Positions 102 to 37,662 of a stretch of 39,870 nucleotides of DNA are shown piece after piece. The notes under the pieces are model-generated. The model had not been told where the DNA came from, did not search any database, and saw only the letters and a program-made list of their open reading frames with translations. Both the position numbers and the translations under genes were made by a program. Numbering within the stretch: the stretch's first letter is position 1; every line of letters starts with the position of its first letter. The DNA is taken from positions 1-39,870 of the forward strand of contig JANLIJ010000156.1 in assembly GCA_024653575.1 (NCBI GenBank). The letters are read 5' to 3'. The DNA comes from Candidatus Kaiserbacteria bacterium. GTDB taxonomy: Bacteria; Patescibacteriota; Minisyncoccia; Phycocordibacterales; UBA918.

Positions 102-644
102 ATGAAAATATTTTTAGTAAGGCACGGGGAGACGACAGGCGATGTGGAAGACAGATATGGGGGAAGCTACGATGACCACCTTACTGAGTTAGGAAAGGAA
201 CAGCTTGCCGTAACGGCGAATAATTTAGTCGGCAAAGGCATTGAAATTATTTTCGTCAGCCCTTTAATTAGAGCATGGGAAAGTGCCGAAATCATCAAGC
301 TCAAAACAGGGTGTCCTGTTGAGATTGTGAATGGGCTTGAGGAGAGGGGTTACGGAGTACTCTCTGGTCTTACGAAGGCAGAAGCTTTGGAGAAATACCC
401 TGAAGTGGTTGAAGCACACAAGAACCCCTTAAACACTGACCCTGAAGGGGAAAGTTATGATGATTTTAAAAACAGAGTTTTAGAGACGTTTCAAAAAATA
501 ACCCAAAAGGAATACAGTGCAATAGCGGTTGTATCTCACGGTGGTCCGATTAAGCAGGTACTTGCTCACTTAGGGAAAAGTATTCCTGAAAAGATTGGTG
601 ACGGAGGGATTATTGAAGTTAACAAATGGTGCACTCGTGAGTAG
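102..644 (+). CDS. Histidine phosphatase family protein (phosphoglycerate mutase-like)
   Basis: N-terminal LVRHGET (RHG catalytic motif) and distal VVSHGGPI motif. TGgTATACT extended -10 at 84-92, 9 nt before the ATG. No SD. Confidence 0.85.
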   Translation: MKIFLVRHGETTGDVEDRYGGSYDDHLTELGKEQLAVTANNLVGKGIEIIFVSPLIRAWESAEIIKLKTGCPVEIVNGLEERGYGVLSGLTKAEALEKYPEVVEAHKNPLNTDPEGESYDDFKNRVLETFQKITQKEYSAIAVVSHGGPIKQVLAHLGKSIPEKIGDGGIIEVNKWCTRE

Positions 645-3796: not shown

Positions 3797-3814
3797 AGGT
3801 TCAATACCCGTTAG

Positions 3815-4024: not shown

Positions 4025-4035
4025 TTTCGCTCCTT

Positions 4036-5401: not shown

Positions 5402-5430
5402 TTTTTCTAAAAAACACACATTACAACCCA

Positions 5431-5480: not shown

Positions 5481-5538
5481 TTTTTGAGATATCAAATAAT
5501 CATTTGCACCAGTATCTTTTCGCCAGTACCATGAGTGT

Positions 5539-6042: not shown

Positions 6043-6078
6043 TACAAAAATTTTGGGGTGTTGTATACTGGAGGGAAT

Positions 6079-6174: not shown

Positions 6175-6939
6175 ACGAGTACTCGAGACTTCATCATGTG
6201 GGAGGAGTGTGTGCGTATAGGTAATAAGTGCGCCAATGATAGCGACACCAAGAATGGTGATGAGAAATGTTCTCTTAAAGTGCTCACGGTGTGAATGACG
6301 AAGTTCGGGGATGAAGTCGGTCGCAGCGATGTAGAGAAGATTTCCTGCAGCGATGCCTGTGAGGAGGAATGCATAGCCCGCGAAAGACTGTGCAAAAAAG
6401 TAGGTGAGGAGAACACCGACGAGAATGCTCGACGCTGACGCGAAATTATAGATGAGCGCTTTGCCTCGTGTGCACCCCGCATGAATGAGGATGCTATATT
6501 CTGCAATTTCTTGTGGAATCTCGTGAAGCGCAATACCGACGGCAGTAAGCGTGCCAACGAATGGATTTACCATGAAGGCTGACGCAATAACGATGCCATC
6601 GGCAACATTATGGACGCTGTCACCAATGAGGAGTTTGTGCGCTCCGTTATGCATACAGGTGTCATGGTCATCAACGTGGTGATGGTGGAATGTCTCAAGG
6701 ATGTGTGAGAGGAGATAAAATCCGAGGAATCCCACAAGAACAACGAGTGGTCCCCATTCGTGTGAAGATTCAAATGTTTCAGGAAGGAGCTCGAAGAAGA
6801 CTACTCCAAGGAATATTCCAATTGCGAGGGGGACGATGTGTGTATGAATTTTCTCCAGTATTTTTGAATTACTAAAGAAGACCCCTCCGATGAGGGAAAG
6901 GGACATAATGCAGAGCGCACTCAAAATAGCTTCAAACAT
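6163..6939 (-). CDS. ZIP family divalent metal transporter
   Basis: His-rich loop HHHHVDDHD, GDSVHNVADGIVIASAF and ALHEIPQEIAEY motifs. Confidence 0.9.
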   Translation of the reverse strand: MFEAILSALCIMSLSLIGGVFFSNSKILEKIHTHIVPLAIGIFLGVVFFELLPETFESSHEWGPLVVLVGFLGFYLLSHILETFHHHHVDDHDTCMHNGAHKLLIGDSVHNVADGIVIASAFMVNPFVGTLTAVGIALHEIPQEIAEYSILIHAGCTRGKALIYNFASASSILVGVLLTYFFAQSFAGYAFLLTGIAAGNLLYIAATDFIPELRHSHREHFKRTFLITILGVAIIGALITYTHTLLPHDEVSSTRLDS

Positions 6940-6960
6940 GATAATTACAAGTGTATACTC

Positions 6961-11786: not shown

Positions 11787-11907
11787 GAGATGCGTATAAT
11801 TGGCAAATTTCTTCGTTAAAACTGCAGTTTTTTCCTCACCATACGCACTGTATGGCTCGGTCAAAAACTTTGTTTCGCCTCGAACTTTACTCAATTATAC
11901 GCATCTC
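11787..11907. repeat. 121 nt long imperfect hairpin starting 1 nt after the nrdA stop
   Basis: Perfect 16 bp basal stem GAGATGCGTATAATTG (11787-11802) / CAATTATACGCATCTC (11892-11907). Apical stem CCATAC/GTATGG around 11847. Confidence 0.7.
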
Positions 11908-11971
11908 AAAACCAAGTAGATAAAAGAGATACGCATTAGAAATACCCCAAATTACAGACAGTCGTGAAAAG

Positions 11972-11980
11972 TGCTAGAAT
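11972..11980 (+). promoter_or_regulatory. Extended -10 TGcTAGAAT upstream of nrdB
   Basis: Followed by a ~50 nt leader with two ATATTCAATAT direct repeats (11989-11999 and 12011-12021). Confidence 0.45.
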
Positions 11981-12029
11981 AGTGACCCATATTCAATATT
12001 TTATTCCCTAATATTCAATATCTTGTATC

Positions 12030-13064
12030 ATGCCGATTAAAAAGAATGCTCCACCAGTAGACATCAACAAGCGACGCGCCATCAACGGCGAAGACGCTGA
12101 CGTGATTCAGCTGTCTCCGATGAAGCACAAGTGGGCGTGGGAGTACTACAACGCTGCAAATGCAAACCACTGGCTTCCAACCGAAATCAGTATGCAACTC
12201 GATATTGAACAGTGGAAGTCACCCACGATTCTCACACAGGATGAACGACATGCATTTGAGACGGTCCTCGGATTCTTTACGACTGCCGATTCAATCGCTG
12301 CAAACAACATCGTCATTGCGAACTATCGTCACATCACCTCACCTGAGATTCGTATGTACCTCCTCCGGCAGGCGTATGAGGAGGCAATTCACACACATGC
12401 GTACCAGTATATTGTGGAGTCGCTCGGAATGGATGAAGCGAAGATTTTCAACATGTATCGTGAGCGAGATGCCATTTACAACAAGGCAAGTTTCATCCTC
12501 GCGTTCAATGAGGGTATTTTCGACCCGACGTTTAAGACGGGGACACTCGAGAACGACCAAAAATATCTCGAAAATCTCTGCATCTTCTCACTTATTGTGG
12601 AGGGCATCTTCTTCTACAGTTCCTTTGCGGTTATGTTTGGATTCCAACGTCAGCACAAGCTTACAGGAAGTGCCGAGCAGATTCAGTACATCATGCGCGA
12701 TGAGTCGATGCACCTCAATTTCGGGTGTCAGCTCATCAATACCATTCGCGAGGAACAGCCAGAGCTCTGGACCAAGGAGTTTCAAGATAAGATTGTGGGG
12801 TACATCAGGGAAGCGGCACGCCTCGAGTACACGTATGCACAGGAGGTATTTCCTGCAGGAATCTTTGGTATGAATGCTTCAGGGTTCAAGCAGTACATCG
12901 AGCACATCGCAGACCGTCGCCTCGAACGCGTGGGGCTCCCTGTACAGTTTGGTGTTGCAAACCCATTCCCATGGATGAGTGAAGCGATCGACCTTCCGAA
13001 AGAAAAGAACTTCTTTGAGACGCGGGTGACTGAATATAAGACTGGTGGTGCTTTAGATTGGTAA
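12030..13064 (+). CDS. nrdB: Ribonucleoside-diphosphate reductase beta subunit (class Ia, radical Tyr present)
   Basis: Diiron ligand motifs TADS and EEAIHTHAY (E118, H121, Y125), plus DESMHLNF. Confidence 0.97.
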   Translation: MPIKKNAPPVDINKRRAINGEDADVIQLSPMKHKWAWEYYNAANANHWLPTEISMQLDIEQWKSPTILTQDERHAFETVLGFFTTADSIAANNIVIANYRHITSPEIRMYLLRQAYEEAIHTHAYQYIVESLGMDEAKIFNMYRERDAIYNKASFILAFNEGIFDPTFKTGTLENDQKYLENLCIFSLIVEGIFFYSSFAVMFGFQRQHKLTGSAEQIQYIMRDESMHLNFGCQLINTIREEQPELWTKEFQDKIVGYIREAARLEYTYAQEVFPAGIFGMNASGFKQYIEHIADRRLERVGLPVQFGVANPFPWMSEAIDLPKEKNFFETRVTEYKTGGALDW

Positions 13065-21317: not shown

Positions 21318-22340
21318 ATGAATAGACATCCAGAATATCAGTACCTAGATCTATGTAAGGACATTCTCGAAAATGGAGCTGACAAAGAATTGTTTTTTAA
21401 CGACGTTGTCTTGGAGGAATACAAAGCGAAGGGCGAGAAACCACCTTTTATACGCTCTGTATTTGGGAGACAGATGCGATTTGATTTAAGCGATGGTTCT
21501 TTTCCGTTACTCACCACTAAGAAGACATTCTGGAGGGGAATTGTTACAGAATTACTCTGGTTTCTTTCGGGGAGTTCAAACATCAAGCCACTCCTCGATG
21601 TAAATAATCACATATGGGACGAGTGGGCATGGAAGCATTTTCAAATGTGGGCAACAGATGCAGAAAAAGCTGAGTATGTGAACATCACACAGAGTGAATT
21701 CATTGCGAAGCTCACCGAACTGTCCCCTGAAGACCCATTTGTGGTGAAGTGGGGAGATTTGATTACTATCTATGGACGCATGTGGCGCAAGTGGCCTGCA
21801 AAGGATGGGCGTGAGATTGACCAACTCGGATGGGTTATTAAGGGTCTTATGACAAAGCCAGACCGTAAGTCGTATGTTGTAAATGCGTGGAATCCTGATT
21901 TTATTTATGAGATGGCATCGGAGGGACAAAAATCACATGTTCCACCGTTTTGCCATACCATGTTTCAATTTCAAGTTGCAAATGGGAAATTGAATCTCGG
22001 CCTCTATCAGCGGTCTGGTGACCTGTTCCTTGGGGTACCATTCAATATTGCAAGTTATGCACTCCTGCTTCTTATGGTGTCACATGTCACCAAGATTCCT
22101 CCTGGGGAATTTGTGCATACGTTTGGTGACGTTCATATCTATTCAAATCATTTTGAGCAAGTGAAAGAACAACTTACTCGGGAACCATACCCATTCCCAA
22201 CCGTAAAGCTCAATCCCGATATAACTGATATTGATGCGTTTACAGCAGATGACATAACACTAGAGGGTTACCAATCACACGATTCAATAAAAGCAGAAAT
22301 AGCAAATATTGGAGGATTCACAGAGACAAAGAAAAAATAG
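21318..22340 (+). CDS. thyA: Thymidylate synthase (ThyA, long form)
   Basis: FWRGIVTELLWFLSG, PFCHTMFQF (catalytic Cys) and YQRSGDLFLGVPFNIASYALL. The start lies 2 nt after the dcd stop. Confidence 0.97.
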   Translation: MNRHPEYQYLDLCKDILENGADKELFFNDVVLEEYKAKGEKPPFIRSVFGRQMRFDLSDGSFPLLTTKKTFWRGIVTELLWFLSGSSNIKPLLDVNNHIWDEWAWKHFQMWATDAEKAEYVNITQSEFIAKLTELSPEDPFVVKWGDLITIYGRMWRKWPAKDGREIDQLGWVIKGLMTKPDRKSYVVNAWNPDFIYEMASEGQKSHVPPFCHTMFQFQVANGKLNLGLYQRSGDLFLGVPFNIASYALLLLMVSHVTKIPPGEFVHTFGDVHIYSNHFEQVKEQLTREPYPFPTVKLNPDITDIDAFTADDITLEGYQSHDSIKAEIANIGGFTETKKK

Positions 22341-25128: not shown

Positions 25129-26829
25129 TTGTATTGTGTTGGTATAGAACGTATGGAGTCAGAAATACGAAAGAGAATTGAAGAGATGCTTGTAGAGCTT
25201 GGCATAGCTGAGGTCAATTTTTCTGTGGAGCATCCTGCCGATTTTGCTCATGGAGACTATGCGACAAATGTGGCGATGGTGTGTGCGAAGCAAATGGGGA
25301 AGAGTCCGCGAGAAATTGCAGAGCAATTTACCGAGGAGCTCAAGGGGAAGATTCCTGATGTCGAGAGGATTGAGATTGCTGGCCCTGGGTTTATTAATTT
25401 TCACCTCACTCGCAATTTTTTCTCCGAAAAAATTGCGAGCATCCTGAGCAATCCCGACACTTTCGGGGAAAACGATTCACTCAATGGAGAAGAGATTATT
25501 TTTGAATACACGAGTCCAAATCTCTTTAAGCCACTCCATGTTGGGAATCTTGTGGGCAACATCGTTGGGGAAGCAGTCTCACGACTTTTTGAATATGGTG
25601 GTGCAGAGCTTCATCGAGTAAATTATCCCTCAGATATTGGGCTCACAGTGGCGAAGGGTGTGTGGGGGCTTAAAAAAATGGACGGTGACCCAAAAGACAT
25701 TACGCAAATTGGTGAAGCGTATCGCGTCGGTAATACTGCGTATGAAGAGGGAGAAGGAAAGGAGGAGATTGAGGCGGTCAATCGTGCACTCTATGAAGGG
25801 AATGATGAGAAACTCAATCAGTTGCGTGCACAAGGCATCGAAACTTCGAGGACACACCTTGCAGAGCTCTGTCGTATGCTCGGTACCACATTTGATACTG
25901 AGATTTTTGAGAGTGAGGTGAGCGAACTCGGAACGAGTATTGTGCGCTCACACATCGGTGAGGTGTTTGAAGAGAGCAATGGCGCCATAATCTTTAAGGG
26001 CGAACGACACGGGCTTCATACACGCGTATTTCTAAATTCCCAAGGACTGCCGACGTATGAGGCAAAGGATGTTGGCAATTTTGCAAAGAAACAAGAAATG
26101 TATCCAGAGTGGACGCAATCATTTGTCGTGACGGGAGGTGAACAGCGTGAGTACTTCAAGGTGCTCATCGCATCACTCCGTGAGGTGTTCCCGGAGGTGA
26201 GTAAAAAAATTATCGAGCATATCCCCACAGGCTTTCTCACCCTCACGACGGGGAAGATGTCATCACGAAAAGGGAACGTACTCACCGGAGAGGAGATTAT
26301 TGCAGAGGTAAAGAGCGAGGCACATAAACGTGCTGAGGAAAGTCGTTCAGAGAATGTTGCAGAACTCACTGAACAAGTTGCCATCGGGGCACTCAAATAT
26401 CAGATTCTCAGGCAAGCGGTCGGGACTGACATTGTCTTTGATAAAGAACGCGCACTTTCTCTTGAAGGAGACTCAGGCCCATACCTCATGTACACCCATG
26501 CGCGCATTGCATCAATTTTGAAGAAGGCTGAAGAGGTCGGCATGACTCCAAGTACAAGTGTCCTGACAGAGATTCCCTATGAATTAGAAAAAGTCGTGTA
26601 TCAGTTTCCTGAAGTGGTCAGGAAGGCACAGAGTGAACGTGCACCACATCTTCTCGTCACCTATCTCACCGCACTCGCGAGTGCATTCAATGCGTTTTAT
26701 GCACATGAGCAAATTGTGAATACCGAGGACGCGAATGCTCCCTTCAAGCTCGCACTCGCGAGCGCCGTGGGCGCAACCCTCAAAAATGGCCTTTATCTCC
26801 TCGGCATGAGTGCACCGGAGCGGATGTAG
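25129..26829 (+). CDS. argS: Arginine--tRNA ligase (alternative start 25153, MESEIRK)
   Basis: SPNLFKPLHVGNL (HIGH-like), GKMSSRKG, and the C-terminal DALR anticodon-binding region ending in M. Confidence 0.95.
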   Translation: MYCVGIERMESEIRKRIEEMLVELGIAEVNFSVEHPADFAHGDYATNVAMVCAKQMGKSPREIAEQFTEELKGKIPDVERIEIAGPGFINFHLTRNFFSEKIASILSNPDTFGENDSLNGEEIIFEYTSPNLFKPLHVGNLVGNIVGEAVSRLFEYGGAELHRVNYPSDIGLTVAKGVWGLKKMDGDPKDITQIGEAYRVGNTAYEEGEGKEEIEAVNRALYEGNDEKLNQLRAQGIETSRTHLAELCRMLGTTFDTEIFESEVSELGTSIVRSHIGEVFEESNGAIIFKGERHGLHTRVFLNSQGLPTYEAKDVGNFAKKQEMYPEWTQSFVVTGGEQREYFKVLIASLREVFPEVSKKIIEHIPTGFLTLTTGKMSSRKGNVLTGEEIIAEVKSEAHKRAEESRSENVAELTEQVAIGALKYQILRQAVGTDIVFDKERALSLEGDSGPYLMYTHARIASILKKAEEVGMTPSTSVLTEIPYELEKVVYQFPEVVRKAQSERAPHLLVTYLTALASAFNAFYAHEQIVNTEDANAPFKLALASAVGATLKNGLYLLGMSAPERM

Positions 26830-26919
26830 CGACAAATCTTGTAATAATGCGCTTGCTCCTGTAGAGTATTTTCAGAATCTACGGCGGGGTGCTGTGGGTA
26901 AAGCGAGGGAGAATTGCAC

Positions 26920-27183
26920 ATGAAGCAATCTGTGGAACGGACCGGTCCCCACGAGACGAGTTGGGGGATACAGGCGGCTGTCGAAGAAATCGACCCGCAA
27001 CAGCTCTTTGTCCGCGACCTACTTATGGAGAGGGTGGGTATGTCGATGGAGGAAGCGACGACGTACGTCAAGGAAATCGGTGTCAGTGTCTCGGCAACGC
27101 TCAAGGTTCTTCTCCAGAAGTCTCCTGATCCGGTGAAGCACTTCAGGGATTTCGAGACCAGTCGCAATGCGAGGGTGCAATAA
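26920..27183 (+). CDS. Hypothetical small protein
   Basis: GAGGGAG SD (26905-26911) lies 8 nt before the ATG at 26920. Terminator at 27209-27231. GC-rich. Confidence 0.4.
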   Translation: MKQSVERTGPHETSWGIQAAVEEIDPQQLFVRDLLMERVGMSMEEATTYVKEIGVSVSATLKVLLQKSPDPVKHFRDFETSRNARVQ

Positions 27184-27208
27184 GGCACCCACAACCACAA
27201 GGAGAAAA

Positions 27209-27231
27209 GGTCGGCAAAGCCCGGCCTTTTT
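27209..27231 (+). terminator. Terminator hairpin plus T-run
   Basis: GGTCGG / CCGGCC stem (one G.U pair) followed by TTTTT. Confidence 0.55.
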
Positions 27232-27303
27232 CTATGGCGATTTGACACACTGCACTCGCACTGGCAAAGTGTGTGTTGCGTTGTTATTTAATGGGGGACG
27301 GAC

Positions 27304-27690
27304 ATGATTGATAAAGTACTACCGGTATTGGGTGCGCTCATGTGGGCAACCTTTCACACGTTCGTATCAGTACTCATGGGGTTTCTCCTTGCTCCACCAA
27401 AGAGCGGGAATCTCATCAAGGTGTCGCTTGGCGAGGTGCAAGAAATGGCGTTCTATGTGATTGGAGTTTTTGCGCTAGCCCAAGCTATGACGCGCCTCGA
27501 TGGGTGGATTTCGAGAGACAGACCAAAGTACGTATCGCTCGATATTCTCCTCTGTGTGGTGATGCCGGCCATTGCGTGGGCACTTTCTAGCATACGGCCG
27601 GCGGGTGCAATCCTTTTTCTTTTCTTTGCATCACTCACTTCCGCGTATCTGGATTTTTCCAAGCTGGTGGCGATGAAGCAGGAAGGGTGA
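27304..27690 (+). CDS. Hypothetical membrane protein (about 4 TM helices)
   Basis: GGGGGA SD-like sequence 5 nt upstream. Hydrophobic segments throughout. Hairpin 27697-27727 follows. Confidence 0.5.
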   Translation: MIDKVLPVLGALMWATFHTFVSVLMGFLLAPPKSGNLIKVSLGEVQEMAFYVIGVFALAQAMTRLDGWISRDRPKYVSLDILLCVVMPAIAWALSSIRPAGAILFLFFASLTSAYLDFSKLVAMKQEG

Positions 27691-27696
27691 AACAAC

Positions 27697-27727
27697 AGGG
27701 CCACCAGCGCAGAGCGCGGGTGGCCCT
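27697..27727. terminator. Bidirectional-looking hairpin
   Basis: AGGGCCACC / GGTGGCCCT with an inner GCGC/GCGC stem. Confidence 0.6.
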
Positions 27728-27862
27728 TTAAAAAGATCATATTAATTTAGCAAATCAAAAGCTTTTCAAACTTTGAAGCATTGGTGAAATGTTGAATAAA
27801 AGTACCTTTGTGGCAGAATGTGATTTGACACCGCGTGGGCGGTGAGAAAAAGGAGAATCGAT

Positions 27863-28234
27863 TTGAAGATCAAAAAAAAGCAAGGACGTATCGGGAAACG
27901 TCCACGAGTCGTTGTTCTGTATCAGCCTCCCTATGATTCCGCATTGGGGAAACATCCACACCCCGTACTCATTGCACGTGGACATTTCGGAAGTCCCGAT
28001 GAGCTCACGACGGAGTGTCAGGCGCGGATAGGGGTCTTGCCCCGACACCATCGCAGTGAAGGGACAGTCCTCGTTGGGCACGAGATAGATGATCATATCG
28101 TCTCCGTGGCGTTTGAAAAAAAATGGCCACAAGTGGAAAGAGTGCCAAGGGGTGCCGTTCACCGAGTTCCTTGCTCGGCATTGCCACCAGAAATTTTTCA
28201 TTTCGCCACCCACAACGTAGCCCCTCACGTCTAA
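27863..28234 (+). CDS. Hypothetical basic protein (TTG start); mutually exclusive with antisense ORF 27755-28228
   Basis: AAGGAG (27850-27855) lies 7 nt before the TTG at 27863. A plus-strand terminator starts 12 nt after the stop. By hand count, first-codon-position G is ~35% in this frame versus ~25% for the antisense frame. Confidence 0.35.
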   Translation: MKIKKKQGRIGKRPRVVVLYQPPYDSALGKHPHPVLIARGHFGSPDELTTECQARIGVLPRHHRSEGTVLVGHEIDDHIVSVAFEKKWPQVERVPRGAVHRVPCSALPPEIFHFATHNVAPHV

Positions 28235-28245
28235 TTGAAGGGCGG

Positions 28246-28270
28246 GCCCGTGTGAAAGCGGGCTTTTTTT
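28246..28270 (+). terminator. Rho-independent terminator just upstream of ileS
   Basis: GCCCG-tgtgaaag-CGGGC followed by TTTTTTT. Confidence 0.7.
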
Positions 28271-28314
28271 ATGCTATGATGCTTCAGTACGCCTGATATG
28301 CGTACTTAATTATT

Positions 28315-31300
28315 ATGTCTGATATACATAACCATATGGATTCAAAAAATGAGAACACAAAGGGTGATGTTGCGCTCCGAGAGGAAGCGATACTTGCCTT
28401 TTGGAACGAGCACAACATTTTCAAGAAGACGGTAGAGACACCTGCGGGCAATGCGCCTGTTGGTGATTTTGTTTTTTATGATGGACCACCCTTCGCGACA
28501 GGCACTCCACACTATGGGCACATTCTTGCAGGAACGATAAAGGATGCCATTCCACGATACCAGACGATGAACGGGAAGCGGGTCATTCGAAAGTGGGGAT
28601 GGGATTGTCACGGACTCCCGCTCGAGAACATTATTGAGAAGCGTCTCGGTCTTTCAACGAAGCGCGATATTGAAGAAATGGGAGTGAAGCAGTTCAACGA
28701 GTCAGCGCGAAGTGCGGTCATGGAATACGAGCACGATTGGAAGGAGATCATTCCACGCATGGGGCGCTTCGTCGACATGGAGGACGACTACAAGACGATG
28801 GATTCAACATACACAGAATCAGTCTGGTGGGTATTTTCTGAACTCAACAGAAAGGGGTTCGTGTATGAGGGATTTAAATCAATGCACCTCTGCCCGCGCT
28901 GTGGGACGACGCTCTCAAACTTCGAGGTGAATCAAGGATATAAGGATATCAAAGACATTGCGGTTTTTGTTGAGCTTCCCCTTGTTGGTGAGGGACGGAC
29001 ATCTCTTGTTGTGTGGACGACGACGCCGTGGACTCTTCCGGGCAACATGGCTGCCGCGGTGCACAACGATATTGAATATGTCGTTGTCGAAAAGAAAGAT
29101 GAGGACGTGGGCGAATTCGTTCGTTTCATCGTTGCGAAGGGGAGGGTACAGTCAATTTTCGAGGGTCAAGAGTATGTTGTAGTGAAAGAGATGAAGGGGA
29201 GCGACCTCGTCGGCAAATCATACCTTCCTCCATTCGATACATTCAAGAATCAGGAATTTACCGGAAAAGAAAATGCATGGAAGATTTACCATGCCGACTA
29301 CGTCGAGCTTGGTGAAGATGGGACGGGGGCGGTACATATTGCGCCAGCCTACGGCGAGGAGGATATGGAGCTCGCAAAGAAGGAGGGGATTCCTATTGTG
29401 CACCATGTCGACACCGACGGACGGTTCAAGGATTTTGTCGCACACTTTGCGGGGCAACTCGTAAAACCAAAGGATGATGAGAAGGCAGAGGTGTCGCATC
29501 TCGACGCCGATATTGAGATCGTGAAGTATCTCAAGGAGGCTGGACGGCTCTTCAAGAAAGAAAATGTCACACACAGCTACCCGCACTGTTGGCGTTGTGA
29601 TACACCGCTCCTCAACTACGGGACAACATCATGGTTTGTGAGGGTGACCGATATCAAAGACGCACTCGTTGCTGAAAATGCAAAGGTGTCGTGGGTTCCT
29701 GAGCACGTGGGAACAAACCGCTTCGGAAAGTGGCTTGAGGGCGCGCGCGATTGGGCGATAAGTCGTCAACGATACTGGGGTGCACCGCTTCCGATTTGGA
29801 AGAATCCAAAAACAGGTACATATAAAATATTTGGGTCACTTAAGGAACTTCTTACCTATGTGCCAAAGTCAGGGAATACATATTACCTCATGCGTCATGG
29901 TGAATCAGAGTCAAACGTGGCTCAAATTCTAAATTCTGACCAATCTGTCAGAAACCCACTCACTGAACGAGGACGAAGTCAGGTATCTGACGCGATTCCG
30001 TCTGTCCCTCAGGATATTGATTTTATTATCCATTCACCCCTTGAAAGAACCACCGAAACGGCACACATGATCGCTCAGTCAAAAGGCATTCTTTCTGAGT
30101 GTGTCCAGAGTGATGAACGGTTGCGTGAGCTTGGTATGGGGAAATTTGAAGGGAAAACATCTGCGGAGAAAGACAAAGCATTCCAGACGCCAGAAGCTGA
30201 GTTTACTATTTCAGTCGGTGGGTCTGAGACACTTAACCAACTTCGTGAACGTGTAGGCGAACTCTTGTACGAGCTTGAACGTACCCACAAGAACAAAAAG
30301 ATTTTGCTTGTATCACATGGTGACCCGATTTGGTTTCTTGAGGCAATTGCCAAGGGCGCCAATATTGAAAAGACACTTGAGATAGGAAAGAGTTACATTA
30401 AGAATGCAGAAGTTCGCACAATTGAGTTTCAAAAGCTTCCCCATAACGACAATTATGAACTCGATTTTCATCGTCCATATATTGATGAAATTGAGCTTCG
30501 CGATACCGATGGGGAAGCCCTTGCTCGCGTCCCTGATGTTTTTGACTGTTGGTTTGAGTCGGGTTCAATGCCGTATGCCCAAAAGCACTATCCATTTGAA
30601 AATCTTGAGACGTTTAACCCCGAAAAAAGCATTGGATACCCAGCTGATTTTATTGCTGAGGGGCTTGATCAAACCCGAGGATGGTTTTATTCATTGATTG
30701 TGCTTGGTGTAGCACTCTTTGGAAAATCACCATTTCGACATGTGGTGGTGAATGGACTTACGCTTGCCGAAGACGGAAAGAAAATGAGCAAGTCACTGCA
30801 GAATTATCCAGACCCAGTTGAACTTGCAGACCGTGTTGGTGCTGATGCACTCAGATATTATCTCCTCTCATCACCGATAGTTCGAGGTGAAGATCTTCGT
30901 GTATCAGAAAAGGAAGTCCTTGAACTTCAGCGGAAAAACATCGGTCGCCTTCATAACGTGCTCGCTATGTATGAGATGTACGCCGACGGAAGCGTTACAG
31001 CACATGCAAACTCGACGAACGTACTCGACAGGTGGATCATTGCACGTCTCAATGAAACGGTGCGCGATATCACTGAGGGATATAAAAACTACGAGCTCGA
31101 TAAAGCGACACGACCCATTGAAGGGCTCATTGACGATATCTCAGTGTGGTATTTGCGTCGTTCACGTGAGCGCCTTAAAGGTAATGATGTTGAAGATAAG
31201 AATGCAACACTCGCGACACTTCGCTACGTGCTCAAAAACCTTGCGCTTGTCATGGCGCCCGTTATGCCATTCTATGCAGAGCACCTTTTCCTCAGCGTCC

Positions 31301-31839
31301 GTGAGGACGGTGATGCAGAGAGTGTACACCTCACGGCGTGGCCGAAGACAGAAACCGTTGACCCCGTGGTCATTGGGGAGATGAGTATCGTCCGAGAATT
31401 GGTGACGGTGGCACTCGAGGCTCGATCAAAGGCGAATATCAAGGTCCGACAGCCACTCGCATCACTTGCCGTGAATATTGAACTGGAGGAAGAGTATGCA
31501 CGAGTGGTGCGTGAGGAAATCAATGTGAAGCATATCTATGCAAATATCGAGATGACAGAACGTGCAACGCTTGATATGAATATTACTCCAGAACTCAAAC
31601 GCGAAGGAGATGTGCGCGAGCTCATGCGCGCGATTCAGGATGCGAGAAAGACCGCAGGACTGAGTCCACAGGACAGGGTTGTACTTACGGTGAGCGAGAC
31701 GACAAAGAACCTCATGATTGGATTTGAAAAGGAAATTATGGGAGTGGTGGGAGCTGTGGAAATAAAAGTGAGTGAAGATATGGAACGTGAGGTCCAGATT
31801 GATGGGCAGACATTCCAGTTTGGGGTTAAGAAAGTATAG
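28315..31839 (+). CDS. ileS: Isoleucine--tRNA ligase (type 2-like) carrying an internal histidine-phosphatase domain
   Basis: HIGH-type motif PHYGH, WTTTPWTLPGN editing domain, KMSKS present (GKKMSKSL). 1174 aa with an extra ~190 aa block at residues ~516-712. Confidence 0.97.
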   Translation: MSDIHNHMDSKNENTKGDVALREEAILAFWNEHNIFKKTVETPAGNAPVGDFVFYDGPPFATGTPHYGHILAGTIKDAIPRYQTMNGKRVIRKWGWDCHGLPLENIIEKRLGLSTKRDIEEMGVKQFNESARSAVMEYEHDWKEIIPRMGRFVDMEDDYKTMDSTYTESVWWVFSELNRKGFVYEGFKSMHLCPRCGTTLSNFEVNQGYKDIKDIAVFVELPLVGEGRTSLVVWTTTPWTLPGNMAAAVHNDIEYVVVEKKDEDVGEFVRFIVAKGRVQSIFEGQEYVVVKEMKGSDLVGKSYLPPFDTFKNQEFTGKENAWKIYHADYVELGEDGTGAVHIAPAYGEEDMELAKKEGIPIVHHVDTDGRFKDFVAHFAGQLVKPKDDEKAEVSHLDADIEIVKYLKEAGRLFKKENVTHSYPHCWRCDTPLLNYGTTSWFVRVTDIKDALVAENAKVSWVPEHVGTNRFGKWLEGARDWAISRQRYWGAPLPIWKNPKTGTYKIFGSLKELLTYVPKSGNTYYLMRHGESESNVAQILNSDQSVRNPLTERGRSQVSDAIPSVPQDIDFIIHSPLERTTETAHMIAQSKGILSECVQSDERLRELGMGKFEGKTSAEKDKAFQTPEAEFTISVGGSETLNQLRERVGELLYELERTHKNKKILLVSHGDPIWFLEAIAKGANIEKTLEIGKSYIKNAEVRTIEFQKLPHNDNYELDFHRPYIDEIELRDTDGEALARVPDVFDCWFESGSMPYAQKHYPFENLETFNPEKSIGYPADFIAEGLDQTRGWFYSLIVLGVALFGKSPFRHVVVNGLTLAEDGKKMSKSLQNYPDPVELADRVGADALRYYLLSSPIVRGEDLRVSEKEVLELQRKNIGRLHNVLAMYEMYADGSVTAHANSTNVLDRWIIARLNETVRDITEGYKNYELDKATRPIEGLIDDISVWYLRRSRERLKGNDVEDKNATLATLRYVLKNLALVMAPVMPFYAEHLFLSVREDGDAESVHLTAWPKTETVDPVVIGEMSIVRELVTVALEARSKANIKVRQPLASLAVNIELEEEYARVVREEINVKHIYANIEMTERATLDMNITPELKREGDVRELMRAIQDARKTAGLSPQDRVVLTVSETTKNLMIGFEKEIMGVVGAVEIKVSEDMEREVQIDGQTFQFGVKKV
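29860..30450 (+). other. Inserted histidine phosphatase (PGAM-like) domain within ileS
   Basis: YYLMRHGESESN (RHG), LTERGRSQ, DERLRE and LLVSHGDPIW (distal His). Flanked by the IleRS segments ..PLPIWKNPKTG..FGSLKELL and LDFHRPYIDEIEL..VFDCWFESGSMPYAQ. Confidence 0.85.
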
Positions 31840-31911: not shown

Positions 31912-32487
31912 ATGGCATACCAGACATACATTACAGAAGCGCTTGTCTGTGGGAGCAGTGATAGCAATACTGCAGACCGCTCCTTTCTTATTTTTACCCG
32001 CGACGCGGGAATGGTGTATGTCCATGCAAAGAGTATTCGTGAAGAGCGCTCGAAGCATCGGTACGCACTTCAGGAATTCTCACATGTGCGAATAACACTC
32101 GTACGAGGGAAGAGCGGATGGAAAGTTATTGGAACAGAACCGATTCAAAACTTCTATGCAAATACCCGTTCACGCGAAGAGCGGGCACTTCTTCGGAATA
32201 TCGTGATGCTTCTTAAGCGAGTGATGCAAGGGGAAACATCACATGAAAGTATTTTTGAAGATGTGATTTTAGCATTTACCCACAATTCGACGTATGAGCC
32301 CAAAAAACTAGAGACCGCGCTCTCTTTTCGCATCCTCCACACACTCGGATATGTTGCGCCAGGCGAAGATCATGTAGGATTCCTCGACGGAGCATTAACT
32401 CCAGAACTTGTGGAAAATATTACCGAAAAAGATGAGGTGGTATATCGGGGTATGACAGAGAAGGCGCTTCTTGAGAGTCATCTCTAG
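31912..32487 (+). CDS. recO: DNA repair protein RecO (short form)
   Basis: N-terminal OB-fold pattern (YITEALVCGS..DRSFLIFTRDAGMVYVHAKSIRE..SK) typical of RecO. 191 aa. Confidence 0.7.
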   Translation: MAYQTYITEALVCGSSDSNTADRSFLIFTRDAGMVYVHAKSIREERSKHRYALQEFSHVRITLVRGKSGWKVIGTEPIQNFYANTRSREERALLRNIVMLLKRVMQGETSHESIFEDVILAFTHNSTYEPKKLETALSFRILHTLGYVAPGEDHVGFLDGALTPELVENITEKDEVVYRGMTEKALLESHL

Positions 32488-34790: not shown

Positions 34791-36188
34791 ATGAATGAGA
34801 TACAAAACCCAGCAAATTCAATGGAAAAGATAATCTCCCTCTGCAAACGCCGTGGGTTTGTATTTCAGGGGTCTGAGATATATGGCGGTCTTGCCGGGAC
34901 GTATGATTATGGTCCTTATGGAGTTGAACTTGCAAATAATATTAAGGCGGTGTGGTGGAAGTCGATGGTGCAAGGAGAACGGAATATCGTTGGTTTGGAC
35001 TCTGCAATATTTACCCACCCAAAAGTTTGGGAGGCGTCAGGGCATGTCGGTGGTTTTGCCGATCCACTCGTTGAGTGTAAGGAGTGTAATACCCGTTCGC
35101 GGGCAGATCACCTCATTGAGGATGTGGGAGCCTTTGCCGATGAAAAGATGAGTGTTGAAGAAATCAATAAAGTGTTTGATGAGCATAGAGATAAGATCAA
35201 GTGTGTAAAGTGTGGAAAGAAAAATTTTACCGAGGTCAGATACATCAATCTATTGGTCAAATCAAATCTTGGAAATTTTGCGAGCGATTGGGCGAAAGAA
35301 CCAACTTATCTTCGAGGAGAAACCTGTCAGGGGATTTATCTCAATTTTAAGAACGTGCTCGATTCATCTCGGGTAAAAGTGCCGTTTGGTATCGCACAAG
35401 TAGGGAAGGCATTTCGAAATGAAATAGCACCACGGCAGTACATTTTCCGACTTCGTGAACTCACTCAGATGGAGATGCAGATGTTTGTGAAGCCAGAAGA
35501 CGAAATGACCACCTATGAGAAGTGGCGACAGAAGCGATGGCAATACTATCTCGATCTTGGATTTAAGGAAGAAAATCTCAAGTGGCATGAGCATGAGAAC
35601 CTCGTGTTCTATGCGAAGGCTGCGTGGGACATTGAGTACAAGTTCCCTTTTGGTTTCAAGGAGCTCGAGGGTATCCATGCACGTGGCGATTATGATTTGT
35701 CACAGCATCAGAAGTTTTCAGGGAAGGACCTCTCATATCTTGACCCCGTGACTAACGAGCGATACGTACCGCATGTTGTGGAGACTTCTGTAGGGCTTGA
35801 TCGAAGCTTCCTCGCAGTGGTGACAGAATTCTATGATGAGGATGAGCTCGGGGGAGAAACACGCACAGTTCTCCGTTTCCCACGAACACTTGCCCCAATC
35901 AAGGTTGCGGTATTTCCATTGCTTAAGAATAAGCCCGAGCTCGTCGCAAAGGCAGAGGAAGTCTTTACAATGCTTTCGTCACAGATGCGCGCTGAATTTG
36001 ACGACAACGGCAACATCGGAAAGCGCTACCGTCGTCAAGACGAGATTGGAACTCCAGCCTGCGTCACCATTGACTTTGAGACCCTCGAGGGCGACACAAA
36101 GGACACGGTCACCGTCCGCAACCGCGACACCGGCGCTCAAGAGCGCGTTCACATCTCCGAGCTCGTATCATATTTGATGCAGGCATAA
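34791..36188 (+). CDS. glyQS: Glycine--tRNA ligase (class II, homodimeric GlyQS type)
   Basis: RGFVFQGSEIYGGLAGTYDYGPYG, FRNEIAPRQYIFRLREL (motif 2) and YVPHVVETSVGLDR (motif 3). Confidence 0.95.
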   Translation: MNEIQNPANSMEKIISLCKRRGFVFQGSEIYGGLAGTYDYGPYGVELANNIKAVWWKSMVQGERNIVGLDSAIFTHPKVWEASGHVGGFADPLVECKECNTRSRADHLIEDVGAFADEKMSVEEINKVFDEHRDKIKCVKCGKKNFTEVRYINLLVKSNLGNFASDWAKEPTYLRGETCQGIYLNFKNVLDSSRVKVPFGIAQVGKAFRNEIAPRQYIFRLRELTQMEMQMFVKPEDEMTTYEKWRQKRWQYYLDLGFKEENLKWHEHENLVFYAKAAWDIEYKFPFGFKELEGIHARGDYDLSQHQKFSGKDLSYLDPVTNERYVPHVVETSVGLDRSFLAVVTEFYDEDELGGETRTVLRFPRTLAPIKVAVFPLLKNKPELVAKAEEVFTMLSSQMRAEFDDNGNIGKRYRRQDEIGTPACVTIDFETLEGDTKDTVTVRNRDTGAQERVHISELVSYLMQA

Positions 36189-36222
36189 TAAATTACACGG
36201 GGTTACCCTGTGGACACCTCTT

Positions 36223-37662
36223 ATGAAAAGTAAATACATCACCACAACACTCCCTTACGTGAACGCGAGTCCACATATTGGACATGCATATGAATTTATT
36301 CAAGCTGATACGCTTGCTCGATACTGGCGACTTATGGGGCACGAAGTTTTTTTTAATGCAGGTACAGATGAACATGGTCAAAAGATTGCTCAGAAGGCAG
36401 ATGAAGCGGGACAATCTCGACAGTCATATGTAGATCATTACGCCGGTGAGTTCAGAAACTCACTCGAAGCACTGGGCCTTTCCCCTGATGCATTTATTCG
36501 TACCACTGATGAGAGGCATATGCGTGCTGCGCAAGAACTATGGAAGCGTTGCGAAGCAAATGGCGATATTTACAAAAAGAAATATAAAGGACTGTACTGC
36601 GTTGGTTGCGAATCTTTTAAGAAGGATTCAGATTTAGTGGAGGGGAAGTGTCCTGATCATCAGAAAGAACCTGAGCAGGTAGAAGAAGAAAATTATTTCT
36701 TCAGACTTTCAAAGTATGAAGTGTATTTAAGAGCATATCTCGAAGAGGAAGATGCGACACTTCCGGATTGGCGAAGGAAAGAACTTCTTATCTTTGTAAA
36801 TGAAGGACTTGAGGATATTAGTATCTCGCGCGAGCGCGCACGACTTGATTGGGGTATTCCAGTGCCCAGTGACGACGCTCATGTGATGTATGTGTGGTTT
36901 GATGCACTCACCAACTACATCTCAACGCTTGGTTGGCCAAACGATGAAGACGGTCTTTTTAAAAAGTTTTGGATGGAAGGGGAGACCTTGCAAGTTGCGG
37001 GGAAAGATCAAATGCGCTTCCAGTCTCTCCTGTGGCAGGCCATGCTTAAAAGTGCAAACTTGCCAAGAACGGGAAAGATTATTTATCACGGATTCATCAT
37101 CTCAGGTGGACAAAAAATGAGTAAGACAATTGGGAATGTTATAAGTCCTTTTGAGCTTGTAGAGAAATATGGCACCGACGCAACACGGTATCTCCTCCTT
37201 CGCCACGTGCACCCCTTCGAGGACACCGACATCACGTGGGAGCGTCTCGATGAGTGGTACACCGCAAATCTCGTGAATGGGCTCGGTAACCTTGCATCTC
37301 GTATCATGAAAATGTCAGAGACCTATCTTGATGAACCTGTTGAATTAACTCAGGAGACAGTACCAGATCCAGACGTCTCCCTTAAAATGGATAGATATGA
37401 ATTCAGTATAGCTATGGATGGGATTTGGGAACGTATTGGACATAACGATGCCCTTATTGCTATCAAGCAACCATTTGCGATGATAAAGTCGGATGACGTA
37501 GATACTCAAAACGAAGCAAAGTTAATTATAAAAAAACTCGTTCGCGAACTTAATGCTATTGCCACAGAATTGAATCCTTTTATGTCTGAGACCGCGGAGA
37601 AGATTAAGCAGGCAATTCGCGAAAACAAAAAACCCGAAAACCTCTTCCCCCGCCTCCCATAA
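36223..37662 (+). CDS. metG: Methionine--tRNA ligase (short form, no C-terminal tRNA-binding domain)
   Basis: PYVNASPHIGHAYE (HIGH) and GQKMSKTIGN (KMSKS). Confidence 0.95.
   Translation: MKSKYITTTLPYVNASPHIGHAYEFIQADTLARYWRLMGHEVFFNAGTDEHGQKIAQKADEAGQSRQSYVDHYAGEFRNSLEALGLSPDAFIRTTDERHMRAAQELWKRCEANGDIYKKKYKGLYCVGCESFKKDSDLVEGKCPDHQKEPEQVEEENYFFRLSKYEVYLRAYLEEEDATLPDWRRKELLIFVNEGLEDISISRERARLDWGIPVPSDDAHVMYVWFDALTNYISTLGWPNDEDGLFKKFWMEGETLQVAGKDQMRFQSLLWQAMLKSANLPRTGKIIYHGFIISGGQKMSKTIGNVISPFELVEKYGTDATRYLLLRHVHPFEDTDITWERLDEWYTANLVNGLGNLASRIMKMSETYLDEPVELTQETVPDPDVSLKMDRYEFSIAMDGIWERIGHNDALIAIKQPFAMIKSDDVDTQNEAKLIIKKLVRELNAIATELNPFMSETAEKIKQAIRENKKPENLFPRLP

Follow-up and report, generated by a model that had tools for sequence, protein, structure and literature searches.

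Few enzymes have been studied as closely as the aminoacyl-tRNA synthetases, and the additions known from bacteria are editing, tRNA-binding or zinc modules. The CP1 editing domain, universal in IleRS, ValRS and LeuRS, is a Rossmann-fold insertion with a second hydrolytic site, which acts on aminoacyl esters; other connective-peptide (CP) insertions of class Ia synthetases place lineage-specific domains at CP sites, and eukaryotic synthetases have appended domains. The only curated family that we found of an IleRS with an extra catalytic domain is NF040702, ileS_w_GNAT. Branch-1 histidine phosphatases such as PhoE/YhfR (1h2e), the PspA-type iPSP1 (4ij5), GpgP Rv2419c (4pz9) and CobC (3hjg, 6e4b) are free-standing soluble enzymes of about 190-210 residues. 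In the bifunctional RNase H/acid phosphatase of the Rv2228c type (NF005567), a CobC-like member of this branch is fused to a nucleic-acid enzyme.

The window analysed here, a stretch of 39,870 nucleotides, encodes an IleRS in which such a phosphatase is nested. The gene, ileS, is a single unbroken open reading frame on the forward strand (28315..31839) of 1174 amino acids, just as the initial annotation had read it, and no second ileS is seen in these 39.9 kb. Its product scores 872.5 bits against NCBIfam TIGR00392 (cut-off 621.4), the match being split into two stretches around an insert; the Pfam match to PF00133 (tRNA-synt_1) is likewise cut into two halves, by His_Phos_1. The best PDB matches are the type-2 enzymes 8wnd, 7d5c, 8c8u and 1ile, with E-values of about 1e-190 to 1e-204 for 8wnd, 8c8u and 1ile, whereas the type-1 enzymes 8c9e, 1ffy and 8wnf match at only about 1e-78 to 1e-87: the protein belongs to the type-2 (eukaryote/archaeon-like) subclass. 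It shares domain order and motifs with the enzymes of Thermus (1ile), Priestia (IleRS2, 8c8u) and the yeast/Candida cytoplasm (8wnd/6ldk), and aligns with them end to end outside the insert. In the alignment to yeast IleRS 8wnd, residues 21-512 correspond to 12-488 and residues 716-1066 to 498-866, leaving about 203 residues where the yeast enzyme has about 9. A short linker had been expected here in canonical type-2 enzymes, and solved structures indeed show a CP3 connection of about 10 residues; the insert is not ordinary IleRS sequence.

The N-terminal part (amino acids 1-512, 28315..29850, +; PF00133 at 26-511) contains the first Rossmann half, the CP1 editing domain, CP2, the CP2-3 linker (29743-29781) and the CP3 hairpin. 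The C-terminal part (716-1174, 30460..31836, +; PF08264 at 905-1048, PF19302 at 1054-1174) contains the remainder of CP3 (LDFHRPYID...), the second Rossmann half (WFESGSMPYAQ, GLDQTRGWF), KMSKS, the stem-contact fold, the anticodon-binding domain and the C-terminal domain. The HIGH-type motif, the editing domain and KMSKS, all said to be intact, are present and conserved across homologues: HYGH at residues 66-69 (28510-28521), the editing motifs WTTTPWTLPGN (WTTTPWT at 234-240; 29014-29046) and GTGAVHIAPAYGEED (GTGAVH...D, 336-350; 29320-29364), and KMSKS at 823-827 (30781-30795), all on the forward strand. The product is a fully equipped type-2 IleRS of an ultra-small CPR (Patescibacteria) bacterium of the Paceibacteria/Minisyncoccia type, and one would expect from its sequence that it charges tRNA(Ile) normally. 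The insertion does not lie in the catalytic core, as was first proposed: the alignment to 8wnd, read with the IleRS literature (PMC7955072, PMC7191050), places it in CP3, a peripheral and variable connective-peptide subdomain whose topology differs between IleRS types. CP3 of Thermus IleRS carries a Zn knuckle that the window protein lacks, and in human IARS1 it is an exposed surface that binds partners (PMC13439101).

The whole insert, defined by the gap between yeast residues 488 and 498, spans amino acids 513-715 (29851..30459, +) and consists of an N-linker LTYVPKSGNTY, a branch-1 histidine phosphatase domain at 524-706 (29884..30432, +) and a C-linker KLPHNDNYE. The match to PF00300 (His_Phos_1) is strong: E = 6.7e-32 in the full protein (111.2 bits, cut-off 21.7) and 1.7e-33 (116.3 bits) for the excised 197 residues alone. 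On the forward strand, the RHG motif with R527, the nucleophile H528 and G529 (29893..29901) aligns to R10/H11 of PhoE; the phosphate-pocket N534 (29914..29916) to the Asn that follows RHG; the proton donor E605 of DERLRE (30127..30129) to E83; and the second catalytic His, H668 of VSHG (30316..30318), to H151. Both the RHG and the SHG segments were therefore correctly read, and R527/H528, DERLRE and H668 stand as first assigned, but the canonical second Arg is R578 in SPLERT (30046..30048; PhoE R59), not the one in LTERGRSQ. The AF2 model of the domain has a pLDDT of 88.3 and a pTM of 0.86, and Foldseek matches it, with probability 1.00 and TM 0.67-0.77, to over 40 superfamily members with solved structures (0.72-0.75 to PspA 4ij5/4ij6 and GpgP Rv2419c, about 0.67 to PhoE 1h2e).

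HMM matches, residue invariance, predicted fold and structure search thus agree with the claim of a complete histidine-phosphatase domain in an otherwise intact type-2 IleRS. The domain folds autonomously and, going by sequence and modelled fold, is apparently a competent enzyme: a phosphomonoesterase of the small 'core-only' type, similar in size to PhoE, PspA, CobC and GpgP and sharing their fold and catalytic set, but nested in another enzyme and only 22-26% identical to them. It resembles CP1 in being a second hydrolytic site within the Rossmann fold, and differs from it in being a phosphoryl-transfer enzyme of an unrelated superfamily in restricted lineages.

A nested domain raises the question of artefact, be it a chimeric assembly, an intein or a spacer that is degenerate and purely structural. 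The GC content is slightly lower over the insert (0.40-0.46, against 0.48-0.53 upstream), though its profile has no sharp break, and a conserved P-H-N near the C-junction superficially resembles an intein terminus. This explanation is already refuted. The insert is present, with the same junctions and a length of 203-210 residues, in all 120 nearest homologues (62-100% identity, PF00300 plus PF00133, on independent contigs of up to about 1 Mb), which rules out a chimera. No Hint or intein Pfam domain matches, His_Phos occupies 183 of the insert's 203 residues, and the conserved H710-N711 is followed by Asp or Glu rather than by Cys, Ser or Thr. A degenerate spacer is excluded by R527, H528, N534, R578, E605 and H668, invariant in 120/120: both active sites, of synthetase and phosphatase, are complete and kept so by purifying selection. 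The insert sought in orthologues is thus there, and it is not unique to this genome: it is clade-wide, with the nested form in at least 92 of the top 150 representatives at 50% identity, and represents one variant of a broader association between IleRS and phosphatase.

No NCBIfam equivalog cut-off for any phosphatase is reached by the insert. The phosphoglycerate mutase models (dPGM: NF038349, TIGR01258 and related) give 86 bits against 225 for dPGM_arch and 20 against 81.7 for pgm_1, the others being far under cut-off; the alpha-ribazole phosphatase CobC (TIGR03162) gives 73 against 162.9, the phosphoserine phosphatase PspA (NF045917) 54 against 350, and SixA (TIGR00249) 26 against 74.5. With identities of 22-26% and no threshold reached, substrate specificity is not transferable from known phosphatases. 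The Rv2228c type, fused end to end rather than nested and with another partner, scores 73 bits against 326. Among models of modified synthetases, ileS_w_GNAT (NF040702) reaches 311.9 bits against 1999, the window protein having no GNAT Pfam match, and the mupirocin-resistance proteins MupA/MupB (NF000257, NF000258) 636 and 696 against 1900.

In the window, ileS lies between argS (25129..26829, +; Arg_tRNA_synt_N/tRNA-synt_1d/DALR_1) and recO (31912..32487, +; RecO_N). This frame recurs: argS is found at 13 nested loci, abutting ileS in at least 5, and recO follows ileS in 17 of 23 nested loci. In sister lineages, an orthologous phosphatase gene of about 195 residues stands directly upstream of an insert-less ileS in 7/7 loci, argS being found also at three of these split loci (L084, L090, L091) and recO at two (L084, L090). 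In the cultured Minisyncoccus archaeiphilus (locus L023), a 195-residue His_Phos frame (3013-3600) overlaps the start of an insert-less ileS (3597-6557); six further, diverse phosphatases, 43-69% identical to it, are each placed in the same way. Within the argS-[phosphatase]-ileS-recO frame, each state excludes the other at 30/30 loci: a separate phosphatase frame is found in 0/23 nested loci, and an insert-less ileS in 7/7 adjacent ones. The Minisyncoccus phosphatase scores 124 bits against the insert HMM, whereas the window's own free-standing histidine phosphatase (102..644, +; 180 residues), which had been named a paralogue of the insert, scores 72. It is a genuine His_Phos_1 protein (E = 1.3e-41), but with 32% identity to the insert it is a generic paralogue rather than the closest relative.

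We lean, with modest confidence, towards an active phosphatase functionally coupled to IleRS. Synthetase and phosphatase subfamily would form a conserved two-enzyme module with two interchangeable encodings: two genes, the stop of the phosphatase overlapping or abutting the start of ileS, or one polypeptide with the phosphatase inside a surface loop, as in the window protein. That stop-start arrangement suggests translational coupling in the split form, and the coexistence of split and nested encodings, a Rosetta-stone signal, predicts a physical partnership. Start/stop overlaps are also common in CPR genomes, even between unrelated genes, and conserved gene order in such compact genomes can be purely historical; both observations count against coupling. 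So does a difference in the free-standing orthologues, which carry Asp instead of Glu at the position of E605 in 114/120; at that of N534 they have Gln or Glu in an uncertain stretch of the alignment.

Other IleRS lineages carry one or two His_Phos copies at four different sites (A, A', B, C), with the R/H/N/R/E/H set kept in every complete copy; one such cluster (P0269) is represented on 6 contigs, which reach 1.06 Mb in length. These sites probably lie on the face away from active site and tRNA, which argues against direct coupling. Other domains are found as well. The IleRS P0458 has, at site B, a tandem pair of HAD phosphatases with intact DxDG motifs and no His_Phos, a convergence on a nested phosphatase; Gracilibacteria-type IleRS also host GNAT, kinase, DUF559 (endonuclease-like), Ser-hydrolase and Y1 transposase-like domains, a variety that points to a generally insertion-tolerant scaffold. 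GNAT and His_Phos occur in one IleRS in proteins labelled Gracilibacteria and Peregrinibacteria. Nevertheless, His_Phos is by far the commonest nested domain, nearly all matches carrying PF00300.

Such a scaffold invites the main competing explanation: a neutral, ratchet-like capture, in which duplication or recombination put a neighbouring housekeeping phosphatase gene into permissive surface loops of IleRS, an essential protein, where precise removal is hard, the domain keeps a job unrelated to IleRS and the association has no functional meaning. Multiple, probably peripheral, sites and the motley of nested domains, including endonuclease- and transposase-like ones, are what this would produce, and the Ser_hydrolase that adjoins ileS at locus L092 and is nested in the IleRS P0448 fits the capture of neighbours. 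Close relatives of the insert sit away from ileS (P0241, 57% identical, and P0282, both free-standing), and several CPR lineages do without both forms (Nealsonbacteria L024, Saccharimonadia L025 and L028, P0460 and P0462); these two facts speak at once for capture and against coupling. However, the phosphatase recurs far more than any other nested domain, single or doubled and at four sites, with all copies in IleRS catalytically intact; an unrelated phosphatase fold is found at the same kind of site; the neighbours argS and recO were never seen nested in the IleRS proteins examined; and the exclusivity of split and nested forms is strict. We regard neutral capture as rather unlikely.

Coming back to the coupled module, the tethered phosphatase would hydrolyse a phosphomonoester via a phospho-His528 intermediate, with R527, R578 and N534 holding the phosphate, E605 protonating the leaving group and H668 assisting. 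Since other lineages use four peripheral sites, sometimes twice, selection would act on co-localisation or 1:1 stoichiometry with IleRS rather than on precise channelling between active sites. The weakest step is the substrate, which we conjecture to be some small metabolite carrying a phosphate, or a nucleotide, within the reaction sphere of IleRS. That it is AMP or another ribose-5'-phosphate compound is unlikely on present knowledge; local removal of such a substrate would make charging less reversible in cells of low energy charge. A role in clearing PPi is weakened by the pyrophosphatase encoded in Peribacteria and in a Gracilibacterium. More generally, the target of a coupled phosphatase might be the AMP by-product, phosphorylated tRNA(Ile) or phospho-IleRS.

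The second of these targets suggests tRNA end-healing: the phosphatase would act on tRNA(Ile) that the synthetase holds and that has been damaged or processed, stripping it of a 3'- or 2'-phosphate and restoring a chargeable A76, and in some lineages a nested polynucleotide-kinase-like AAA_33 P-loop domain would be the 5'-kinase half, as in Pnkp-type enzymes. The IleRS P0474 and P0459 do nest a phosphatase together with a kinase of AAA_33/AAA_18/Zeta type, HAD and His_Phos appear as alternative phosphatases, and IleRS itself provides the tRNA binding; the phosphatase of T4 Pnkp is a HAD enzyme. Like these two IleRS, 6-phosphofructo-2-kinase/fructose-2,6-bisphosphatase combines a P-loop kinase with a branch-1 histidine phosphatase in one chain, by analogy only and in a protein that has no synthetase scaffold. 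However, the nested domain is acidic, with a median pI of 5.3, and no RNA-binding element has been added to it; its nearest folds are all small-metabolite phosphatases, the IleRS-tRNA literature consulted describes no contact between CP3 and tRNA, and there is no evident reason for a need restricted to tRNA(Ile). To our knowledge, no branch-1 histidine phosphatase acts on RNA ends. We judge end-healing quite improbable.

Still less probable is a protein phosphatase acting in cis, which would free IleRS of an inhibitory phosphate, say on a Ser of the KMSKS loop or close to it, and so counter a regulatory or toxin kinase. The toxins HipA and HipT inactivate GltX and TrpS by phosphorylating the loop of the ATP site, and some members of the superfamily, SixA, PGAM5 and Sts-1, are protein phosphatases; tethering at variable sites would suit action on a flexible loop, and some IleRS nest kinase domains. 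On the other hand, the score against the SixA model is low, the structural neighbours are metabolite phosphatases, no HipA-like gene is found in the window or the other loci examined, and we know of no kinase that targets IleRS.

The least credible of the functional proposals is immunity attached to the target, in which the accessory domains of IleRS (GNAT, Ser-hydrolase, phosphatase) would detoxify its natural inhibitors, such as aminoacyl-adenylate mimics, right where these act, on the model of microcin C immunity by MccE (GNAT), MccF (Ser peptidase) and MccH (phosphoramidase). The nested GNAT and Ser_hydrolase domains, the curated ileS_w_GNAT family and the membership of type-2 IleRS in the mupirocin-resistant class, with its MupA/MupB-like matches, would agree with it. 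Yet histidine phosphatases cleave terminal phosphomonoesters, whereas adenylate mimics resemble phosphodiesters or phosphoramidate diesters and call for HIT-type chemistry; we know of no IleRS inhibitor that bears a phosphomonoester, and vertical conservation across a clade looks more like housekeeping than like an arms race.

The initial annotation knew of no synthetase with this architecture, and this holds within the searchable literature, where we found no paper describing the nesting of a phosphatase in IleRS, nor any description of a phosphoryl-transfer enzyme inserted in a synthetase with its catalytic residues conserved across a major bacterial radiation. Hundreds of such proteins are already in sequence databases under generic names: for the phosphatase-bearing form there is no curated model, and NCBI calls it only 'class I tRNA ligase family protein', a name given to several of these IleRS, while GNAT-bearing forms are called 'GNAT family N-acetyltransferase'. 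As a result, metabolic reconstructions could miss IleRS in CPR genomes.

In genomes this small, retained genes are probably important. The four sites, the one or two copies and the unrelated HAD phosphatase amount to a natural experiment on how domains become nested and architectures converge, and the question is directly testable, with the split form in the cultured Minisyncoccus archaeiphilus and the nested form as single frames that can be expressed recombinantly. A stronger form of the proposal is doubtful, namely that IleRS throughout much of the CPR/Patescibacteria operates only together with a phosphatase of its own, in an obligate complex or in a single chain, and that the activity of this phosphatase is mechanistically coupled to aminoacylation. 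If this strong form is true, a class I synthetase would have an accessory activity that had gone unrecognised, and the phosphatase would be the most widespread case of a broader rule, by which IleRS in these organisms serves as a scaffold for nested enzymes, be they phosphatase, kinase, GNAT or hydrolase.

The ileS gene of the window is a single open reading frame at 28315-31839 on the + strand, and its 1174 amino acids run without interruption, as the initial annotation had read them. Pfam splits the tRNA-synt_1 match of the protein in two around a histidine-phosphatase domain, PF00300, at residues 524-706 (nt 29884-30432; E = 6.7e-32, 111 bits versus a gathering score of 21.7); the insert, when excised as 197 residues, matches the same family with E = 1.7e-33, and the phosphatase domain proposed inside IleRS is thus confirmed. 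The host protein matches the NCBIfam model TIGR00392 ileS with 872.5 bits, against a cut-off of 621.4. The host belongs to the TIGR00392 IleRS, type 2, and the insert, residues 513-715 (nt 29851-30459), to branch 1 of PF00300.

All positions were checked by translation, including those of the motifs: HYGH (nt 28510-28521) and KMSKS (nt 30781-30795) for the synthetase, and, for the phosphatase, RHG (nt 29893-29901), R578 (nt 30046-30048), E605 (nt 30127-30129) and H668 (nt 30316-30318). The catalytic residues first listed stand for RHG, E605 and H668, but the second arginine is R578 of the motif SPLERT, which pairs with R59 of PhoE in the alignment, and not the arginine of LTERGRSQ. Translation, Pfam matches and alignments with solved structures together show that this is the one slip in an otherwise correct description. 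The window IleRS carries two intact active sites.

The closest solved structures by sequence are all type-2 IleRS: yeast 8wnd and 7d5c, Priestia IleRS2 8c8u and Thermus 1ile. In the sequence alignment with 8wnd, residues 12-488 match query residues 21-512, and residues 498-866 match 716-1066, which leaves about 203 residues in the window IleRS where the yeast enzyme has about 9. Foldseek finds no counterpart of the insert in any solved IleRS, and the block is indeed not ordinary type-2 sequence.

In ScIleRS, the CP3 subdomain covers residues 459-526 and the CP2-3 linker is 453-ARDWNVSRNRYWG-465 (PMC7955072); in CaIleRS, CP3 covers residues 473-534 (PMC7191050). The window counterpart of the linker lies at residues 477-489, and the insert stands after the CP3 beta-hairpin, before LDFHRPYID. 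The topology of CP3 differs among Candida, Thermus and Staphylococcus IleRS (PMC7191050), and in human IARS1, CP3 and the catalytic domain form an exposed surface that binds the UNE-L domain of LARS1 (PMC13439101). Consequently, the nesting stands, but the idea that the domain is spliced into the catalytic core must give way to a position in a peripheral, variable connective peptide: the host site of the phosphatase is peripheral.

The AF2 model of the full-length protein, built on a shallow alignment, is moderate (pLDDT 75.9, pTM 0.54), with a confident insert region (pLDDT about 85-96). Modelled alone, the insert reaches a pLDDT of 88.3 and a pTM of 0.86, and is predicted to be an autonomous phosphatase fold. 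Foldseek puts it beside small metabolite phosphatases, with TM scores of about 0.67-0.77: the PspA-type phosphoserine phosphatase 4ij5/4ij6, GpgP Rv2419c, PhoE 1h2e and CobC, and also the riboflavin-pathway HFP 9mmh and RosC.

The best 120 matches to the window IleRS in a collection of 5.8 billion proteins, with 62-100% identity and lengths of 1117-1246, come from many independent assemblies, on contigs of up to about 1 Mb; those that are named belong to Candidatus Kaiserbacteria, Pacebacteria or Minisyncoccia (CPR/Patescibacteria). PF00300 and PF00133 occur together in all 120. The insert is 203-210 amino acids long throughout, and residues R527, H528, N534, R578, E605 and H668 are invariant, as are N521, G553, S574, E638, R646, P709 and H710. 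Mean column conservation over these sequences is 0.61 for the insert, 0.82-0.83 for the two catalytic-core segments and 0.54 for the C-terminal domain. Judging by this conservation, the insert is an enzyme under purifying selection, and not a decaying one.

Two artefacts could mimic a nested domain. A chimeric assembly is ruled out, since the same insert and junctions appear in all 120 homologues, and GC content, slightly lower across the insert, shows no sharp break. An intein is ruled out as well: a search of the insert for its signature, by Pfam and conserved residues, found none, there being no Hint domain, too little room and the wrong +1 residue.

Scanning GTDB species representatives with an alignment of the insert plus its junctions yields 80 loci, which we surveyed by HMM. 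The nested form occurs in 23 of them, in Paceibacterota, Taylor-, Nomura- and Falkowbacteria, among others, and many other loci have a type-2 IleRS without the insert (Nealsonbacteria, Saccharimonadia, Actinomycetes, Deinococcota, DPANN archaea). In locus L023, from the complete genome of the cultured Minisyncoccus archaeiphilus (PMC12281837), a free-standing His_Phos gene (3013-3600, 195 amino acids) and the insert-less ileS that follows it (3597-6557) share an ATGA-type overlap; this ileS lies around 402.4-405.4 kb of NZ_AP038758.1. The phosphatase shares the motifs N-x-Y-x-L-RHG and GESWxDxxxR with the inserts and scores 124 bits against the nested-insert HMM, versus 72 bits for the free-standing phosphatase encoded at 102-644 in the window. 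This last gene, presented initially as a paralogue of the insert, is one, but with 32% identity it is not the closest relative, and we reject it as the source of the insert.

Homologues of the Minisyncoccus phosphatase make up 224 clusters or more; all of the 120 that were listed are free-standing, 184-221 amino acids long, and labelled Patescibacteria where named. Six diverse members were looked up (43-69% identity to the Minisyncoccus protein), and each is immediately followed by an insert-less ileS, whose start either overlaps the phosphatase gene or comes at most 8 nt after it; these ileS encode 953-975 amino acids, the one in locus L081 being truncated by the contig end. The gene order is argS-phosphatase-ileS in loci L084, L090 and L091, followed by recO in L084 and L090. 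In the window, argS is at 25129-26829 and recO at 31912-32487, and a DUF11/CLIPPER-type protein is encoded in the neighbourhoods of both the window and L084. Among the 23 nested loci, argS is upstream in 13, abutting ileS in at least five, and recO is downstream in 17; none has a separate phosphatase gene, whereas ileS is insert-less in all seven adjacent loci. The split and nested states are mutually exclusive at the level of the locus, within a conserved frame. The pattern is of the Rosetta-stone kind, with the phosphatase either between argS and ileS or within ileS.

Several features of these loci deserve mention. The window spacer between argS and ileS (26830-28314) is unusually long, about 1.5 kb, with a membrane-like ORF of 128 amino acids at 27304-27690 that has no Pfam match, and a GC-richer patch at 27800-28250 where ORFs of both strands overlap; no remnant of a phosphatase gene was found in it. 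No Rfam match, such as a T-box-like element, at gathering threshold and no tRNA was found in the whole window. In L023 (678-2950) and in L081 (2217-4437), which comes from a close relative of Minisyncoccus, two tandem receiver-domain-plus-HATPase_c genes directly precede the phosphatase-ileS pair; the other adjacent-type loci show no such genes. A rough NJ tree groups the IleRS of L084, L090 and L091 (ileS at about 5050-7990) with those of DPANN archaea and not with other Patescibacteria, which could be an inter-domain transfer or a long-branch artefact.

It would be false to say that every free-standing relative adjoins ileS: the proteins P0241 and P0282 do not. P0241 (locus L085, 266-883; 205 amino acids) is 57% identical to the window insert, has an archaeal-type AdoMet synthase among its neighbours, and falls within the window's nested clade in a rough domain NJ tree without support values; perhaps it is a domain that "escaped" or was transferred. 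Among the looked-up loci, no His_Phos gene adjoins an insert-less Gracilibacteria-type ileS; in L092, such an ileS adjoins a Ser_hydrolase gene (PF06821, weak match; 7332-7841, minus strand), and in L093, a YbaK-type tRNA_edit gene (7109-7585) abuts its stop.

An exhaustive HMMER search with the insert alone against 1.84 billion representatives at 50% identity gives 690 matches at E <= 1e-10; the 150 best include at least 92 that are nested in IleRS, many of them in fragments at contig ends, and 47 that are free-standing. Several IleRS carry two His_Phos domains, and four sites can be defined overall: site A, that of the window, in CP3; site A', later in CP3, before PEVLDCWFESG; site B, between WFESGSMPYA and PADFIAEGLDQTRGWF; and site C, which separates the stem-contact fold from the anticodon-binding domain. 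The observed combinations are A+A', A+C, A'+B and B+C, and every complete copy in these proteins keeps the R/H/N/R/E/H residues. Six contigs, the longest of 1.06 Mb, carry the form of IleRS P0269. PF00300 is present in nearly all homologues of P0269, whose labels are Gracilibacteria, Peregrinibacteria or Peribacteria, and many of them have additional nested domains: GNAT (P0398, P0409, P0411, P0438, P0478), P-loop kinases matching AAA_33, AAA_18 or Zeta_toxin (P0474, P0459, P0479, P0480, P0482), the endonuclease-like DUF559 (P0410, P0423, P0424, P0473, P0474) and an alpha/beta Ser_hydrolase (P0448); a transposase-like Y1_Tnp is nested in P0480. In lineages with the first two labels, IleRS seems to serve as a scaffold for nested domains in general. 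Another homologue of P0269, P0458 (1504 amino acids), has no His_Phos, and bears at site B, residues ~566-1000, a tandem pair of HAD-family phosphatases with intact motif I (DxDG; DFDGV and DNDGV): in this one protein, on one 38-kb contig, an unrelated phosphatase fold replaces His_Phos in the same kind of position. The pairing of IleRS with a phosphatase is recurrent, and also convergent. A rough NJ tree of host IleRS with inserts removed shows the nested state as polyphyletic, with insert-less members inside the Gracilibacteria-type clade; having no support values, our distance trees are used only qualitatively. The phenomenon may extend to ValRS, since P0244 (L088; L089, 366-3851) is an N-terminal ValRS fragment with four His_Phos domains, a weak indication coming from one contig of about 2x coverage, assembled twice.

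The main rival explanation is neutral capture, in which an essential protein took up a neighbouring gene in loops that tolerate insertions, and both the variety of other nested domains and the Ser_hydrolase, beside ileS in L092 yet nested in P0448, speak for it. In the favoured reading, a functional association, the IleRS would charge tRNA normally, and the phosphatase would hydrolyse a phosphomonoester through phospho-H528; because the insertion site and copy number vary, selection would act on co-localisation or stoichiometry with IleRS rather than on precise channelling. The substrate is not transferable by homology, since the insert scores below the cut-offs of all NCBIfam phosphatase and mutase equivalogs, dPGM, CobC, PspA and SixA included. 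Its structural neighbours act on small phosphoesters, and CobC, HFP and RosC on ribose- or ribityl-5'-phosphates, whence our preferred guess, an improbable one, of AMP or another nucleotide-like by-product or effector.

Variants of IleRS with both a kinase and a phosphatase suggest tRNA end-healing, a reading disfavoured by neighbours that are small metabolite phosphatases and by the acidic surface of the domain (pI ~5.3), for which reason we reject an RNA-binding surface on it. Replacement of a missing inorganic pyrophosphatase is weakened by genome papers that report this enzyme in Peribacteria and a Gracilibacterium, lineages whose names are borne by IleRS proteins with the domain. Dephosphorylation of IleRS in cis and immunity to an inhibitor are minor possibilities.

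The window is otherwise rich in genes for translation and nucleotide metabolism (8892-13064, 25129-26829, 34791-37662). It encodes a class I RNR, with a large subunit that has two ATP-cone matches and a small subunit, as well as ThyA, SHMT, ArgRS, TatD, a class II synthetase with tRNA-synt_2b and HGTP_anticodon, and a short MetRS of 479 amino acids. No extra domain was seen in the other synthetases of the window. The thymidylate synthase (21318-22340, 340 amino acids) matches its 266-position Pfam model over residues 8-329, and may thus have insertions of its own.

In the literature searched for such an architecture, no description of a phosphatase-bearing synthetase was found, so that the initial claim of novelty stands within it, while hundreds of sequences are already in databases. 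A paper on SB-203208, matched on GNAT and IleRS, concerns no fusion. By NCBIfam cut-offs, the window protein belongs neither to ileS_w_GNAT, the GNAT-bearing form being the only one curated at NCBI, nor to MupA/MupB. JGI automatically annotated one such protein as 'isoleucyl-tRNA synthetase/phosphohistidine phosphatase SixA/...GNAT'. At NCBI, 'class I tRNA ligase family protein' is the only name given to phosphatase-bearing IleRS, and GNAT-bearing ones appear as 'GNAT family N-acetyltransferase' (seen in P0028, P0036, P0043, P0409 and P0478); with such generic names, an automated reconstruction of a CPR genome could record IleRS as missing. The phosphatase-bearing IleRS is kin to the synthetases with an accessory catalytic domain, a real and widespread form that lends itself to experiments.
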